DNA of 64,000 nucleotides from a bacterium (GTDB lineage: Bacteria > JAHJDO01): positions 1,631 to 65,630 of the forward strand of contig JBDRTG010000034.1 in assembly GCA_043824255.1 (NCBI GenBank). The letters are read 5' to 3'. Positions 45,332 to 62,625 of this stretch are shown here, piece by piece. A program made the position numbers and the translations under genes. The notes beneath the pieces were generated by a model. The model made no database searches. It was not told where the DNA came from and was given only the letters and a program-made list of their open reading frames with translations. The first letter of the stretch is position 1. Each line of letters begins with the position of its first letter.

Positions 45332-45359
45332 TTGACAATTGATTGTATGTTTGTATAAT
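45332..45359 (+). promoter_or_regulatory. Near-consensus sigma70 promoter in front of the ROK regulator and catabolic island
   Basis: TTGACA (45332-45337), a 16-nt spacer, then TATAAT (45354-45359), preceded directly by TG. The ATG at 45369 is only 9 nt downstream and has no SD. Confidence 0.55.
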
Positions 45360-45368
45360 TTAATTGGC

Positions 45369-46589
45369 ATGGATATAAAGATAAAGAAACAAGACTATTG
45401 CAAATTTCGAGTAATTGATTTTATCAGAACAAATCCGGGTGTATCACGTCAGAATATTGGAAAACAATTGCACCTTTCTCCAGCTACTATCACTAATTTC
45501 GCAGGTGATTTAATCAAACATAAAATTATTCAAGAAATTGGGCAAAGCGCAAGCACAGGAGGGCGAAAACCTATAGCTTTGAGTGTCATTCCAAAGATTG
45601 GTTATGCAATTGGTGTAGACATGGAGGCAAGGATAAATATCAGAATCTCAATTGTAGATTTTGCTATGAATCTCGTTGCAACAAAAAAAATGTCTATCGG
45701 AAACATTAAAGATGCAAATAAAATCGCTTCAAATCTGGTTGAGTTAATTAGAAAATTGATAAAAGAAAATAAAATTAACATTGCGCATATAATTGGAATA
45801 GGTATTGGATTCCCTCTTTTGGTTAATGTGAAGAATAATATTCATTCGCATTTAAACAGAGGATATTTACTGCAGACATCAATAAAAGAGGTATTAGAAA
45901 AAAACTTTTCTATTCCAATGTCTATTGACACGAATGGAAGAACACCTCTCGTTGCAGAACAGTATATAGGTGCAGGAAGAGAGTCAAAAGACTTCCTATT
46001 TTTACTTGTGCGTTATGGCATAGTTCTTGGAGTGGTTATAGATAGCAAAATATATAGTGGAATGAATGGAATTGCAGGAGAGGTTGGACATACCATTCTC
46101 TTTAATAATGCCATTCAGTGCGAATGCGGCGCAAAGGGATGTATAGAGGCATGGAATAGTGGTAAGTCAATATTAAATGAAGTAAAGCAGGTAATTAAAA
46201 AAAGTTCAGGCACAGAACTCTCAAAAGAAATTATTGCAAAAAAAGATAAGATTACTCTTAACGACGTAATATATGAAGCAAAAAAAGGTAATAAGTTTGT
46301 TCTGTCTCTCTTTGAGAAACTGGCAAAGAACACAGGTATATTAATTGCAAACTTAATAAATATTTTCAATCCTGAGAAAGTAATAATAAGCGGGATATTA
46401 AATGATTTTGAAAACAAAGTCAGGACTCTTATTGAGCGAAAAATAAGGGCTCATGCAATAGAAGAAGCGCGCGTTAATCTGGAGATTATTTTCTCAAAGA
46501 GCGGAGAATATACAGGAGCGATAGGCGCTGGGATTCTGGCAATTAATTCAGACAGCCATCAGTTTATAAAGAGGAGATATTATTCATGA
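45369..46589 (+). CDS. ROK-family transcriptional regulator (NagC/XylR-like)
   Basis: It has an N-terminal winged HTH (VSRQNIGKQLHLSPATITNFAGDLIKHKII) and a ROK domain with the zinc motif GHT...CECGAKGCIEAW. The TTG at 45339 lies inside the promoter, so the ATG at 45369 is preferred. Confidence 0.85.
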   Translation: MDIKIKKQDYCKFRVIDFIRTNPGVSRQNIGKQLHLSPATITNFAGDLIKHKIIQEIGQSASTGGRKPIALSVIPKIGYAIGVDMEARINIRISIVDFAMNLVATKKMSIGNIKDANKIASNLVELIRKLIKENKINIAHIIGIGIGFPLLVNVKNNIHSHLNRGYLLQTSIKEVLEKNFSIPMSIDTNGRTPLVAEQYIGAGRESKDFLFLLVRYGIVLGVVIDSKIYSGMNGIAGEVGHTILFNNAIQCECGAKGCIEAWNSGKSILNEVKQVIKKSSGTELSKEIIAKKDKITLNDVIYEAKKGNKFVLSLFEKLAKNTGILIANLINIFNPEKVIISGILNDFENKVRTLIERKIRAHAIEEARVNLEIIFSKSGEYTGAIGAGILAINSDSHQFIKRRYYS

Positions 46590-47434
46590 GTAAGAAATTT
46601 AATGAGCATAGGTTTGATCAATTGGCAAAGGAGTTTCGTTATGTAATTACAGACATGATATGCCGGGCAGGATCAGGACACTTGGGTGGAGCGTTGAGCC
46701 TGGTAGAAATAATCATTACATTGTACTACCGAATAATGAATATTGACTCAAAGAATCCTCGCTGGCATGGACGTGATCGTCTTGTTCTTTCCAAAGGGCA
46801 TGCTGGTCCAATTATATATACAGCTCTGGCATATAAGGGGTTTTTCCCAAAGAGTTGGCTGCATACTCTGAATGCAGATGGAACAAGATTGCCTTCTCAT
46901 ATGGATCAGATTCTTACTCCAGGCATTGATATGTCTGCAGGTTCTCTTGGGCAGGGGCTCTCATGTGCCTGTGGAATTACTTTAGCAGGAAAGCTGGATA
47001 ATAAATCGTATAGAACCTTCTGCATTATTGGGGATGGAGAAAGTAATGAAGGACAAATCTGGGAAGCAGCTATGTTTGCGGCGCATAACAAGTTAGATAA
47101 TCTTGTGGTTATTTGTGACTACAACAAGTTACAGATTGATGGTTTTACAGATGATATCCTTTCATTGGAGCCTTTAACAGATAAGTGGCAGAGTTTTGGT
47201 TGGAAAGTTTTTGAGATGGATGGTCATGATTGGAACGATATTTATACTACGATTAATAAGGCAATTGCAGTAGAAAAGAAACCTGCAATGGTTATAGCCC
47301 ATACGATCAAAGGTAAGGGGAATACAATTATCGAAAATAAGCCTGAAAGTCACAATATAAAGGTTCCGGATGAAGAAGCGTATCAAAAGTATATGAATGC
47401 ACTTGTGGATAAGAATGTAAAACTTCCATATTGA
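46586..47434 (+). CDS. Transketolase, N-terminal (TPP-binding) subunit of a split enzyme
   Basis: 282 aa. Motifs: GSGHLGGALSLVEI, RDRLVLSKGHAGP, GDGESNEGQIWEA. Confidence 0.9.
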   Translation: MSKKFNEHRFDQLAKEFRYVITDMICRAGSGHLGGALSLVEIIITLYYRIMNIDSKNPRWHGRDRLVLSKGHAGPIIYTALAYKGFFPKSWLHTLNADGTRLPSHMDQILTPGIDMSAGSLGQGLSCACGITLAGKLDNKSYRTFCIIGDGESNEGQIWEAAMFAAHNKLDNLVVICDYNKLQIDGFTDDILSLEPLTDKWQSFGWKVFEMDGHDWNDIYTTINKAIAVEKKPAMVIAHTIKGKGNTIIENKPESHNIKVPDEEAYQKYMNALVDKNVKLPY

Positions 47435-60559: not shown

Positions 60560-61336
60560 ATGGAAGTTAGCGATTTCAAAAAGTACGTTTACAATTTGAA
60601 AGGCAGACTTAATCCTGATGAAGGGCTTTTGTTTGGAAACGAGAATAATGGGATTACAGGAATTCAAGTATCTTGGATGGCAAGTCTGGATGCTATTGAG
60701 AGCGCTCAAAGGGTAGGAGCAAATTTAATGCTTGTTCATGAAGCGCTTTTTTACCCATATCCATTTTCGAATAACCCAAGACCAAAGGATTATCTATGTT
60801 GGTCAGTTAATAAGAAAAGAAAGGAATTATTATCTAGATATGAGATTGCTGTAATAAGATTTCATGGCACGCTTGATGAGATATGTATACTTGACGATTT
60901 TGCAAAAGCATTAGGTCTTCCTGAGCCATCAATAGAAGATAAGTTAGTAAAACTATATGACATTGAACCTGTGAGTATAGAAACTATGATAAAAAGAGTT
61001 AAAAAAGCATTGTTATTAGATATAGTCAGAGTTACGCCTTGTGATTTAAAGAAAAAGGCAAGACGTATAGGATTGCCGTGGGGAGGGTTAGGATTGTTCG
61101 TTAATGTAAGTTATCAGGAGAGATTGCTCAAGTATGAACCTGATTTATTCATTGCAGGAGAAAGTGACTGCTATGGTTTTATCTATGCAATTGATGCAGG
61201 TATACCAATGATTGAGACCTCTCATGAAATAAGTGAAAATATTGGACTCAAGAATTTTGCAGATAAATTAAAAAAAGATATAATGGATATTAATATAACT
61301 TTTTATGAAAACAAGAAACCTTGGATAAATTTGTAA
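60560..61336 (+). CDS. NIF3-like (DUF34) dinuclear metal-centre protein
   Basis: About 258 aa. The patterns ITGIQVSWMASLDAIESAQRVGANLMLVHEALFYP and C-terminal ETSHE are typical of NIF3. The ORF is open from 60548. Confidence 0.65.
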   Translation: MEVSDFKKYVYNLKGRLNPDEGLLFGNENNGITGIQVSWMASLDAIESAQRVGANLMLVHEALFYPYPFSNNPRPKDYLCWSVNKKRKELLSRYEIAVIRFHGTLDEICILDDFAKALGLPEPSIEDKLVKLYDIEPVSIETMIKRVKKALLLDIVRVTPCDLKKKARRIGLPWGGLGLFVNVSYQERLLKYEPDLFIAGESDCYGFIYAIDAGIPMIETSHEISENIGLKNFADKLKKDIMDINITFYENKKPWINL

Positions 61337-61344
61337 ATAATATA

Positions 61345-62625
61345 ATGCTTAAACCTGAATCTACACAAGGCAAAACGGATTGGTTTGTTCACGACCGTTT
61401 TGGTCTCTTCATTCACTGGGGCATTTATTCGGTTGCTGCGCGGCATGAATGGGTTAAAAACTACGAAAAAATAACGGATGAGGAATATCAGAAATATTTC
61501 GATCATTTTGATCCTGACCTGTATGATCCGGAGGCATGGGCAAAGGCAGCAAAACATGCTGGGATGAAATATGTTGTCCTGACGACAAAGCACCACGATG
61601 GCTTTTGTCTATGGGATTCTAAATTAACTGACTACAAAGCGACGAATACACCTGCAGGACGCGATCTTCTTAAACCATTTGTTGAAGCCTTTCGGAAGCA
61701 GGGGATTAAAATAGGTTTCTATCATTCGCTGATTGACTGGCATCATCCGGAATTTCCTGTGGACAGTTGTCATCCGCAGCGCGATGATGAGGAATTCAAA
61801 AAACGCACAAAAGAACGTGATATAAAAAAATATGCTGAGTATTTACATGGTCAGGTTCGGGAACTGCTGACAGAATTCGGAAAGATTGACATTTTATTCT
61901 TTGATTTTTCTTATCCTGAATCTCATGGGATGAAAGGAAAAGGCAAAGAGGATTGGCAGTCTGAAAAACTAATTAAGATGATTAGAGAATTAATGCCGGA
62001 TATAGTGATAAATAATCGGACAGAAGTTCCGCAGGATTTCTACACTCCCGAGCAGTTCCAGCCGTGCGGATGGGTTCATGTAAATGAGAAACCTGTTGTA
62101 TGGGAGGCGTGCCAGACATTCAGCGGCAGCTGGGGCTATCACAGAGATAACCTTAACTGGAAGTCATCAGAAATGCTGATCAAGATGCTGATTGATACAG
62201 TGTCTAAAGGCGGAAACATGCTATTGAATGTTGGACCTACAGCGCGTGGACAATTTGAGCCAAAAGTTTTGGAAAGACTGCATGATATAGGTGAGTGGAT
62301 GAGACTTCATTCCCGTTCTATTTACGGCGCAACTCAAAGTGAATTCAAAGTGCCTCAGGACTGTAGGCTTACTCAAAATGGTAACCGTGTTTATCTACAT
62401 ATCTTTTCATGGCCATTTAAACATATTTACATTGATAACATGGCAGATAAAGTTGAATATGCGCAACTGTTAAATGACAACTCTGAGATAAAGATGCAAA
62501 GACACGATCCAAAGAAGGCACACTCTCACATGTCTAAAAAAATAGATCCCAGAACATTAACACTTATTCTGCCGATACAAAAACCGGATGTAACTGTCCC
62601 TGTTATTGAATTATTTTTAAAATAA
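61345..62625 (+). CDS. Alpha-L-fucosidase, GH29, apparently cytoplasmic
   Basis: Motifs: WFVHDRFGLFIHWGIYSV, KYVVLTTKHHDGFCLWDS, plus a C-terminal beta-sandwich. The start is uncertain (TTG 61321 or ATG 61345). Confidence 0.85.
   Translation: MLKPESTQGKTDWFVHDRFGLFIHWGIYSVAARHEWVKNYEKITDEEYQKYFDHFDPDLYDPEAWAKAAKHAGMKYVVLTTKHHDGFCLWDSKLTDYKATNTPAGRDLLKPFVEAFRKQGIKIGFYHSLIDWHHPEFPVDSCHPQRDDEEFKKRTKERDIKKYAEYLHGQVRELLTEFGKIDILFFDFSYPESHGMKGKGKEDWQSEKLIKMIRELMPDIVINNRTEVPQDFYTPEQFQPCGWVHVNEKPVVWEACQTFSGSWGYHRDNLNWKSSEMLIKMLIDTVSKGGNMLLNVGPTARGQFEPKVLERLHDIGEWMRLHSRSIYGATQSEFKVPQDCRLTQNGNRVYLHIFSWPFKHIYIDNMADKVEYAQLLNDNSEIKMQRHDPKKAHSHMSKKIDPRTLTLILPIQKPDVTVPVIELFLK

Follow-up and report, generated by a model that had tools for sequence, protein, structure and literature searches.

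How might a bacterium take a sugar apart with transketolase when the genes at hand include no kinase to phosphorylate it? This question is raised by a 64,000-nucleotide stretch of bacterial DNA (assembly GCA_043824255.1, contig JBDRTG010000034.1), referred to here as the window, in which 16 co-directional open reading frames (ORFs) form an island on the plus strand at 45339-62625. The ORF list and searches of Pfam, NCBIfam, and the Protein Data Bank (PDB) place 14 of them, from a ROK-family regulator through the second of two NagB-like genes, in an operon at 45369-60352 with intergenic gaps of -11 to +23 nucleotides (nt). A preliminary description had counted about 15 genes with many 4-nt overlaps; the common direction and every protein family it named are confirmed by these searches, the number of genes is 16, and the 4-nt overlaps in the 14-gene run come to four. 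Signal peptides were predicted on none of the operon enzymes. The explanation to which we incline, without great confidence, is that the operon encodes a kinase-independent, oxidative sulfo-transketolase (sulfo-TK) pathway from sulfoquinovose (SQ) to sulfoacetate with a NagB-fold isomerase. Family membership, residue conservation, synteny, and co-occurrence are what was observed; from these we infer every activity, which protein is the isomerase, and what an Amidohydro_2 protein, a class II aldolase, and a DUF4838 protein contribute.

In such a pathway, imported sulfoquinovosides, for example sulfoquinovosyl glycerol, would be cleaved in the cytoplasm by an SqgA-like glycosidase and possibly by the DUF4838 protein as well. 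The two NagB-fold paralogs, NagBL1 and/or NagBL2, would isomerize sulfoquinovose to 6-deoxy-6-sulfofructose (SF), with Amidohydro_2 as a helper. A split transketolase would pass C1-C2 to glyceraldehyde-3-phosphate (G3P), giving xylulose-5-phosphate and sulfoerythrose, an RpiB-type isomerase would convert sulfoerythrose to sulfoerythrulose, and a second transketolase round would yield sulfoacetaldehyde. A SauS/SqwD-like aldehyde dehydrogenase (ALDH) would then form sulfoacetyl-CoA, a SucCD-like ligase would turn this into sulfoacetate and ATP, and a DASS transporter would export the sulfoacetate, with the ROK protein acting as repressor.

That the trunk of the pathway makes a C2 sulfo-acid by transketolase we consider quite likely. 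The transketolase is divided into an SqwG-like N-terminal subunit (46586-47434; Pfam Transketolase_N, E = 2e-48) and an SqwH-like C-terminal subunit (47439-48401; Transket_pyr and Transketolase_C, with the same synteny). These are followed by a CoA-acylating ALDH, a predicted SqwD/SauS-like sulfoacetaldehyde dehydrogenase (48398-49822; Pfam Aldedh), whose top NCBIfam model is SauS (519 bits, E = 1e-155, versus 429 bits for AdhE). Next come the beta subunit (49828-50955; SucC-like, of the SqwKL/SauCD type, with ATP-grasp_2 and Ligase_CoA) and the alpha subunit (50952-51833; SucD-like, with CoA_binding and Ligase_CoA) of an ADP-forming acyl-CoA ligase, a DASS (Na_sulph_symp) anion transporter of the SauI-like family that is the predicted sulfoacetate exporter (51845-53317; Pfam E = 2e-57, TIGR00785 above cut-off), and the RpiB-type isomerase (53321-53815; LacAB_rpiB, E = 1e-41). 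The sulfo-TK pathway, including an oxidative, sulfoacetate-forming variant, has reportedly been published by Liu et al. in 2021 and by Chu et al. in 2023 (Acholeplasma sp.). The preliminary description agrees in its nomenclature with reviews, which name SqwGH as the split transketolase and SqwI as the RpiB-type isomerase alongside SqwD and SqwKL (PMC12890257, PMC11659671, PMC9594981). Its proposal that the core resembles the sulfoacetate-forming variant is likewise upheld: a match to the published SqwGH/SqwI/SqwD/SqwKL set is supported by the SauS model and by gene blocks shared with clusters that carry YihQ, SqvD, and DUF4867.

These clusters, designated here by L numbers, are metagenomic, and orthology to Sqw proteins was judged through those carrying YihQ, SqvD, and SqvB, not through characterized Sqw sequences. 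One of them, L140, has the order DUF4867 (SqvB), YihQ, ABC transporter, SqvD (Fucose_iso_C above cut-off), TK, TK, RpiB, transporter, ALDH, SucC, SucD. In L117, YihQ (E = 4e-189 to Escherichia coli YihQ) accompanies TK, TK, RpiB, SucC, SucD, and DASS, and in L092 a run of MFS_2, SqvD-like, and YihQ (E = 4e-212) genes is joined further along by DASS, TK, TK, and RpiB, with a flanking ROK gene. The ALDH-SucC-SucD-DASS and TK-RpiB blocks recur across these three reference clusters, all of which contain YihQ and share the order TK-TK-RpiB. RpiB directly follows the transketolase genes in L092, L093, L103, L110, L117, and L140 (37-47% identity to the RpiB of the window, 40-47% for clusters containing a sulfoquinovosidase), and DASS genes adjoin TK or SucCD in L092, L093, L103, and L117, with 44-51% identity between the DASS protein of the window and those of sulfoquinovosidase-containing clusters. 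The ALDH is 61% and 57% identical to those of the canonical clusters L140 and L103 and 70-74% identical to those of L009, L088, and L093; SucD reaches 64-67% with L103, L117, and L140, and SucC 52-55% with the ligase of YihQ clusters. For the N-terminal transketolase subunit the values are 70-73% with L009, L011, L088, L089, L092 (72%), and L093 and 50-53% with the YihQ/SqvD clusters L140, L117, and L103. A metagenome scan with a transketolase profile listed mostly housekeeping transketolases, and L103, L117, and L140 were among the matches listed.

Could the same proteins serve ordinary metabolism instead, as a mosaic of pentose-phosphate, amino-sugar, and succinyl-CoA enzymes, or degrade a hexuronate or hexosaminuronate through transketolase cleavage to glyoxylate, oxalyl-CoA, and oxalate? 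In all of the families, phosphosugars are the normal substrates, and DASS transporters typically move dicarboxylates. SucD scores above one NCBIfam cut-off for succinate-CoA ligase (344 versus 336), the class II aldolase resembles an ordinary fructose-bisphosphate (FBP) aldolase, and the fold matches of the DUF4838 protein include the alpha-uronidases GH115, GH67, and GH138. We nevertheless find either version very improbable. The partner subunit SucC falls under both NCBIfam SucC cut-offs (342 versus 375.6 and 337 versus 370), and the best model for the ALDH is SauS. Across phyla, this compact operon of 14 genes is conserved, with TauE in L089 and near L093 and with SauS-like genes, and is syntenic with YihQ/SqvD/SqvB clusters. 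The island holds no kinase, phosphotransferase system (PTS), or uronate isomerase, and the phosphate ligands of NagB are lost.

The claim in the preliminary description that the island has neither kinase nor PTS is sustained. When the window was searched by tblastn with YihQ, SqvD, SqvB, Khk, PfkB, and phosphofructokinase (PFK) queries, those for SqvD and SqvB being taken from L092 and L140, only a distant PFK-family gene was returned. The ROK protein (45339-46589; Pfam ROK, E = 1e-48), for which the ATG at 45369 is probably the true start, was tried as the missing sugar kinase and rejected. Its best NCBIfam model is NagC, at 193 bits including the N-terminal helix-turn-helix, and it is assigned as a NagC/Mlc-type repressor on the strength of a winged-helix domain at the N terminus and a DxGxT ATP motif that is degenerate ('GVDMEARI'); the zinc motif CECGAKGC is kept. 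The absence of a GH31 sulfoquinovosidase, also claimed earlier, holds by tblastn. Pfam finds no match in the island to SqvD (PF02952), SqvB (DUF4867), or YihS (PF07221), and the absence of a YihS-type isomerase was judged from these Pfam results.

The glycosidase that would take the place of the GH31 enzyme is the Gfo/Idh/MocA protein at 56383-57504, a replacement already suspected in the preliminary description and well supported by comparison with solved relatives. It resembles the NAD-dependent sulfoquinovosidase SqgA (GH188-like; Pfam GFO_IDH_MocA), and its three top matches in the PDB, all full length, are to SqgA structures: FlSqgA (E = 2e-44), ArSqgA (E = 3e-44), and 8ZN9 (E = 4e-34), the last deposited with a study of marine sulfoquinovosidases and presumably RdSqgA (PMC12780224). 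In ArSqgA, the sulfonate is held by a triad of R166, K172, and the backbone of L170 (PMC10755693). Alignments made with phmmer and MAFFT show that R166 and K172 are kept, as are the catalytic K107, Y136, E189, H193, and H321 (ArSqgA numbering; the numbering of the SqgA chain equals that of the paper plus 13). The Gfo/Idh/MocA genes near NagBL1 homologs in L001, L013, L016, and L020 were considered as SqgA and rejected because K172 and Y136 are missing. Elsewhere in the window, a 418-residue Gfo/Idh/MocA protein in a second putative glycan locus (27210-36504) is without the SqgA sulfonate residues. The pairing itself is already known: SqgA was described in 2023, in a survey that did not list it with sulfo-TK clusters (PMC10755693), and sulfo-TK has since been reported alongside YihQ and SqgA in a Spirochaete from the rumen (PMC13219744).

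Sulfoquinovose released in this way would need an isomerase, and we predict that it is a NagB-fold enzyme, replacing the nonhomologous SqvD and YihS. NagBL1 (55505-56359), a predicted sulfoquinovose-to-sulfofructose isomerase or 6-sulfo-hexosamine deaminase, has no Pfam match; it scores 94.7 bits (E = 5.5e-27) with the NCBIfam nagB model, far under the cut-off of 236.9, matches solved NagB structures (E = 1.5e-20), and has 593 homologs at E <= 1e-10, most of them unnamed. NagBL2 (59468-60352), a predicted second isomerase or deaminase, is 33% identical to NagBL1, with a subthreshold Pfam match and 68.4 bits against the same cut-off. The catalytic Asp and His of NagB are kept in both paralogs, in NagBL1 as the Asp of MDEY and the His of GH(F)AFN (D72 and H143). 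The NagBL1 family has other residues in place of the phosphate ligands, with PVGPL for PTGGTP in the T41-T44 loop, Met for R172, and, for K208, a His flanked by an invariant Arg and Trp; the putative anion-site residues of NagBL1 and NagBL2 differ. The two paralogs co-occur in L001, L009, L013, L088, L089, and L090.

Four lines of evidence lead to this prediction. NagB-like genes and SqvD were never found together in the sulfo-TK-type clusters examined, six having NagB-like genes without SqvD and two full clusters SqvD without a NagB-like gene; L093 has neither within 10 kb. In L117, a NagB-like/Amidohydro_2 pair is encoded in the operon that contains a genuine YihQ together with an ABC transporter. 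The neighborhoods of other NagBL1 homologs recall the sulfo-Embden-Meyerhof-Parnas (sulfo-EMP) route, with a Khk 1-kinase, a DeoC-type aldolase, an ALDH, and an ABC transporter in L001, PFK and a Cgl0159-type aldolase in L176, and PFK and a class II aldolase in L003; by analogy, a 1-kinase with an aldolase would follow sulfo-EMP logic. In L005, the neighbors are an iron-dependent alcohol dehydrogenase (Fe-ADH), TauE, Amidohydro_2, and ROK. The fourth line is the loss of phosphate ligands from a site that keeps its Asp and His. Gene neighborhoods thereby favor the earlier suggestion that NagB-like proteins stand in for the isomerase and fall short of proving it, and we found no proposal of a NagB-type SQ isomerase in the literature.

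Other genes also adjoin members of these families. Uroporphyrinogen decarboxylase/MtaA-type (URO-D-like) genes lie next to NagB-like genes or sulfo-TK clusters on unrelated contigs (L005, L013, L018, and L093), and DUF3604 proteins occur near NagBL1/NagBL2 at 17338-18936 of L001, a haloarchaeon-like contig, and at 5022-6596 and 8955-10760 of L090, the closest relative of the window. Short neutral-ceramidase-like amidases stand beside NagBL1 in L012 (11801-13075) and beside a member of the DUF4838 subfamily and GH123 in L094 (7421-8632), which hints at an N-acylated substrate for some family members.

Is the gene set more than a local collection? L088, from the Lentisphaerae, holds the complete set of the window in another order: ROK as a flanking gene, then NagBL1, aldolase, EamA, ALDH, SucC, SucD, DASS, TK N-subunit, DUF4838, TK C-subunit, RpiB, Gfo/Idh/MocA, NagBL2, and Amidohydro_2, with DUF4838 between the two transketolase genes. 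The entry genes, namely the two NagB-like genes, Amidohydro_2, the class II aldolase, and DUF4838, are conserved together with the core in Lentisphaerae, Victivallales, and Armatimonadota, and because the set recurs with shuffled order in other phyla, it is not a chance assembly. ROK genes flank L005, L009, L088, L089, L092, L093, and L117. An oxidative set of ALDH, SucCD, and DASS is present in L009 (Victivallales), L088, and L093; L011 and L089 (Armatimonadota) have a reductive set with Fe-ADH in its place, TauE being within the cluster in L089 only and also near the L093 cluster. The oxidative and reductive relatives mirror the two published sulfo-TK variants, the reductive one corresponding to SqwF/SqwE.

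Two further operon proteins have roles that are harder to assign. The Amidohydro_2 metal hydrolase (53815-54585; Pfam E = 3e-23), with an N-terminal HxH motif and PDB relatives that are all uncharacterized, is paired with a NagB-like gene in seven loci (the window, L005, L006, L017, L018, L088, and L117); it may be a helper akin to a mutarotase or esterase, or else a deacetylase like NagA. The DUF4838 protein (57517-59478; Pfam E = 1e-30, 107 bits versus a cut-off of 26.6) is a glycoside hydrolase of the GH163/GH185 superfamily, probably cytoplasmic as judged from the lack of a predicted signal peptide, and belongs to a subfamily of its own with about 15 members at 34-83% identity, among which no Streptococcus sequences were retrieved. 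PDB searches gave it no sequence match. The best fold matches of its AlphaFold2 model (predicted local distance difference test score, 87.8) are GH115, GH84, GH20, GH138, GH89, and GH67, which would not separate an N-acetylhexosaminidase from an alpha-uronidase-like or sulfoquinovosidase-like enzyme. The subfamily occurs in or beside the sulfo-TK clusters L011, L088, and L089 and, among sulfo-TK clusters, only in those without YihQ; it may represent a third family of sulfoquinovoside hydrolases. The idea that it is exclusive to such clusters was rejected, as it is also found in L094 and L095.

Several observations weigh against the route from sulfoquinovose to sulfoacetate. One is the class II (Zn) ketose-bisphosphate aldolase (54582-55502; Pfam F_bP_aldolase, E = 5e-72), which is conserved (51-71%) in L009, L011, L014, L015, L088, L089, and L093, is absent from YihQ/SqvD clusters, and finds no place in a transketolase route that lacks a kinase. 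Its best PDB matches are ordinary class II FBP aldolases (E = 5e-44). It may cleave SF-1-phosphate made by a housekeeping PFK, it may have a 4-epimerase-like activity, or it may be an ordinary FBP aldolase that regenerates the G3P acceptor. For the first option, the window offers a single kinase candidate that might supply the aldolase, the PFK-family gene at 7238-8410 on the minus strand (tblastn match at 7271-8395), 37 kb from the island and 40% identical to the pyrophosphate-dependent PFK (PPi-PFK)-like gene of L003, whose neighbors are NagBL1 and a class II aldolase. The L003 PFK scores as an ordinary PPi-PFK, and L003 is weakened as a clean example of sulfo-EMP2. Transketolase identity was rejected as a marker of the pathway: the split transketolase of L096 is 68% identical with no cluster genes around it, so that the sequence alone is not diagnostic, and the canonical YihQ clusters reach only 50-53%. 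The SauS score of the ALDH, 519, is under the model cut-off of 600. At only 34% identity to ArSqgA, the SqgA-like protein falls below the 54% threshold used for prokaryotic environmental SqgA; active eukaryotic homologs have 31-47% identity (PMC12780224). The L088 ortholog keeps R166 and K172 and has Cys at the position of Tyr136. L117, which has no SqvD, carries a KduI/IolB-type cupin directly after YihQ (5620-6405, minus strand) that could be a noncanonical sulfoquinovose isomerase, which weakens the support drawn from that locus.

The other adverse points concern the substrate. The DUF4838 protein has a GH163/GH185 N-acetylglucosaminidase domain, lacks a signal peptide, and sits inside the operon both here and in L088. 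The NagB fold, the recurrent NagB-like/amidohydrolase pairing in seven loci, and the NagC-like regulator together resemble nagA-nagB-nagC. PIG-L deacetylases adjoin DUF4838 in L089 and lie close to NagBL1 in L006 and L008, GH123 lies upstream in L009, and a sulfamidase-like sulfatase (SGSH_C domain) is beside NagBL1 in L176. Bacteria of the Planctomycetes-Verrucomicrobia-Chlamydiae (PVC) group are specialists in sulfated glycans. A 6-sulfo-N-acetylhexosamine is a serious rival substrate because of the DUF4838 protein, the nag-like gene set, the PIG-L, GH123, and sulfatase genes near homologs, and the L117 cupin. The substrate would then be a 6-O-sulfated N-acetylhexosamine, for example N-acetylglucosamine (GlcNAc)-6-sulfate from mucin, keratan, or heparan-type glycans. 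In the cytoplasm it would be released by DUF4838 and/or the NAD-dependent glycosidase, Amidohydro_2 (PIG-L in some relatives) would deacetylate it, and a NagB-like enzyme would deaminate it to fructose-6-sulfate, from which transketolase and RpiB would produce glycolaldehyde sulfate without a sulfatase or kinase, to be oxidized to sulfoglycolate with a gain of ATP and exported.

We judge this amino-sugar route unlikely. The ALDH, ligase, and transporter at its end, 50-67% identical to their counterparts in clusters with a genuine YihQ, are orthologous to them and show no sign of a separate clade; the SqgA-like enzyme keeps SQ-binding residues; and the NagB-like/Amidohydro_2 pair sits in the YihQ operon of L117. 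Amidohydro_2 (PF04909) is not known to include an N-deacetylase, bacteria of these phyla usually rely on sulfatases, and many of the nearby glycosidases are in separate transcription units. Sp_0475, the founder of GH185, is a cytoplasmic exo-6-sulfo-beta-GlcNAcase with key residues Q174, H227, D309, Y436, and the sulfate-binding R633 (PMC10570127). Within the DUF4838 subfamily, the invariant residues include H201, D276, and Y408, and no invariant Arg equivalent to R633 was seen near the C terminus. The 6-sulfated hexosamine offered as an alternative in the preliminary description thus stays alive through DUF4838, with the SqgA residues and the orthology to YihQ clusters counting against it. 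A literature search for fructose-6-sulfate metabolism and for sulfoquinovosamine returned no papers.

Both substrates might also converge on one trunk. Sulfoquinovosides would enter through SqgA and one NagB-like isomerase, and a 6-sulfo-N-acetylhexosaminide would enter through DUF4838, Amidohydro_2, and the other NagB-like protein as deaminase. Such a funnel would account for two glycosidases, two NagB paralogs with differing anion-site residues, and an amidohydrolase in one operon. L117 has YihQ and a candidate cupin isomerase alongside its NagB-like/Amidohydro_2 pair, and the glycosidase slot varies, SqgA and DUF4838 standing between the NagB-like genes in the window and the NagB-like genes being adjacent in L090. 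It makes more assumptions than either single-substrate model, however, and requires either downstream enzymes that accept both a sulfonate and a sulfate ester or a sulfonated amino sugar of which we found no description, and we see it as improbable. Taken more broadly, it is possible, if rather doubtful, that the NagB-like and Amidohydro_2 proteins together are the counterpart of NagB and NagA for a C6-sulfo amino sugar, with DUF4838 as its glycosidase, acting on GlcNAc-6-O-sulfate or an undescribed N-acetyl-sulfoquinovosamine, alone or beside sulfoquinovose; no sulfatase or kinase would be needed, and the transketolase route would lead to a C2 sulfo-acid and ATP.

At its upstream end, the operon that we read as a sulfoquinovose pathway is directly preceded by a sigma-70-like promoter, TTGACA-16-TATAAT (45332-45359, plus strand), the top match in the region with 12 of 12 consensus positions; it is only suggestive, as promoter-like sites overall do not exceed the expectation from shuffled sequence. 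At the downstream end, a 195-nt gap precedes a NIF3-like protein and a GH29 alpha-L-fucosidase (60548-62625, plus strand; Pfam NIF3 and Alpha_L_fucos). The preliminary description had included both in the island. They are absent from all related clusters examined, and L090, a close relative, has other glycosidases after NagBL2 in that position; they probably form an adjacent unit outside the conserved module and its pathway. After a further gap of 203 nt comes a DUF6785 polytopic membrane protein (62829-64000, plus strand, cut by the window end; 340 bits in Pfam), of a family also represented beside the NagBL1/Fe-ADH/TauE/Amidohydro_2/ROK cluster of L005 (14967-16874); it may be a candidate uncharacterized sulfosugar transporter.

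Immediately upstream of the promoter are three tRNA genes (Thr-TGT, Tyr-GTA, and Gly-CCC; 44809-45047), and an 83-residue ORF at 44888-45139 is taken as spurious because it overlaps them. Clusters of tRNA genes are frequent insertion points for acquired islands; the GC content is unchanged across the tRNA/operon boundary. The upstream genes are housekeeping genes, with an N_methyl/DUF1559 protein among them, and this protein together with named homologs in Lentisphaerae, Victivallales, and Kiritimatiellae suggests that the host probably belongs to the PVC group and resembles Lentisphaerota or Kiritimatiellota. Further off, gene orientation and GC skew flip at about 25700, between divergent pheS and tilS, with the cumulative skew minimum near 26 kb. 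A replication origin at this turn was rejected, DnaA-box matches not being clustered there (34 DnaA-box-like 9-mers in the window versus 19.8 in shuffles). The second putative glycan locus (27210-36504, plus strand) encodes a GntR/LacI-type regulator, a CBM9 protein, a 960-residue DUF6259 and CBM_4_9 protein, a 688-residue protein with an internal pilin-like N_methyl/DUF1559 motif (residues 481-539), and a 357-residue protein without a family.

Production of sulfoquinovose, an abundant plant sulfosugar, amounts to about 10 Pg per year, and bacteria that produce sulfite and sulfide are fed by the products of its breakdown. If confirmed, the pathway proposed here would add a third, unrelated family of sulfoquinovose isomerases, of the NagB fold and with hundreds of unannotated metagenomic members, and would extend sulfoglycolysis to PVC bacteria and Armatimonadota; PVC taxa were looked for in 2026 SQ reviews and a stable-isotope probing study and are not mentioned there. 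It would also supply marker genes missed by surveys based on yihQ, sqgA, and sqvD. Should the amino-sugar reading be true, the operon would represent a desulfation-free use of sulfated host glycans. A handful of recombinant enzymes would suffice to test these predictions.

The individual components can be set against known enzymes. With SqgA/GH188 (Kaur et al. 2023, PMC10755693), the Gfo/Idh/MocA protein shares the fold, a full-length best match, and the catalytic and sulfonate residues. The DUF4838 protein has in common with Sp_0475 (GH185) and BT1035 (GH163), for both of which DUF4838 is the catalytic domain (PMC10570127), its TIM-barrel domain, similar size, cytoplasmic location, and the structural neighbors GH115, GH84, and GH20; it differs in forming a separate small subfamily with no conserved C-terminal Arg. 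The NagB-like proteins share with NagB/NagA and the E. coli aga cluster (AgaI/KbaY) the NagB fold, the catalytic Asp of MDEY, the ring-opening His, and a genetic setting that often includes an amidohydrolase-superfamily protein, a class II aldolase, and a ROK regulator like NagC. They differ from NagB in their low identity (about 27%), in the replaced phosphate loop, R172, and K208, in having no kinase or PTS to supply a 6-phosphate, and in their sulfosugar operon context.

At the level of pathways, sulfo-EMP2 (SqiK and SqiA) resembles the operon in its class II aldolase, but no PfkA-type kinase adjoins here, the only PFK-family gene being 37 kb away on the other strand. In Bilophila wadsworthia, SauS and SauCD are accompanied by SauI, a transporter of the Na:sulfate symporter family (PMC10413351); that sulfoacetate module is reductive and degradative and feeds the isethionate sulfolyase, whereas the one described here is predicted to be oxidative with export of sulfoacetate. 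The oxidative sulfo-TK pathway (SqwGH/SqwI/SqwD/SqwKL) has the same split transketolase, dependent on thiamine diphosphate (ThDP), with RpiB, a CoA-acylating ALDH (here a predicted sulfoacetaldehyde dehydrogenase) with an ADP-forming SucCD-type ligase, no kinase, and a di-anion exporter. In place of its FucI-type SqvD, SqvB (DUF4867), and YihQ, the operon has an SqgA-like protein, two NagB-fold proteins, Amidohydro_2, a class II aldolase, and DUF4838, and the hosts are PVC bacteria and Armatimonadota rather than the published Firmicutes, Spirochaetes, Thermotogae, and Tenericutes. Because the defining trunk is shared, the SqvD/YihS isomerase is missing, and five extra genes are conserved, we regard the system as a variant of sulfo-TK and not as a new pathway.

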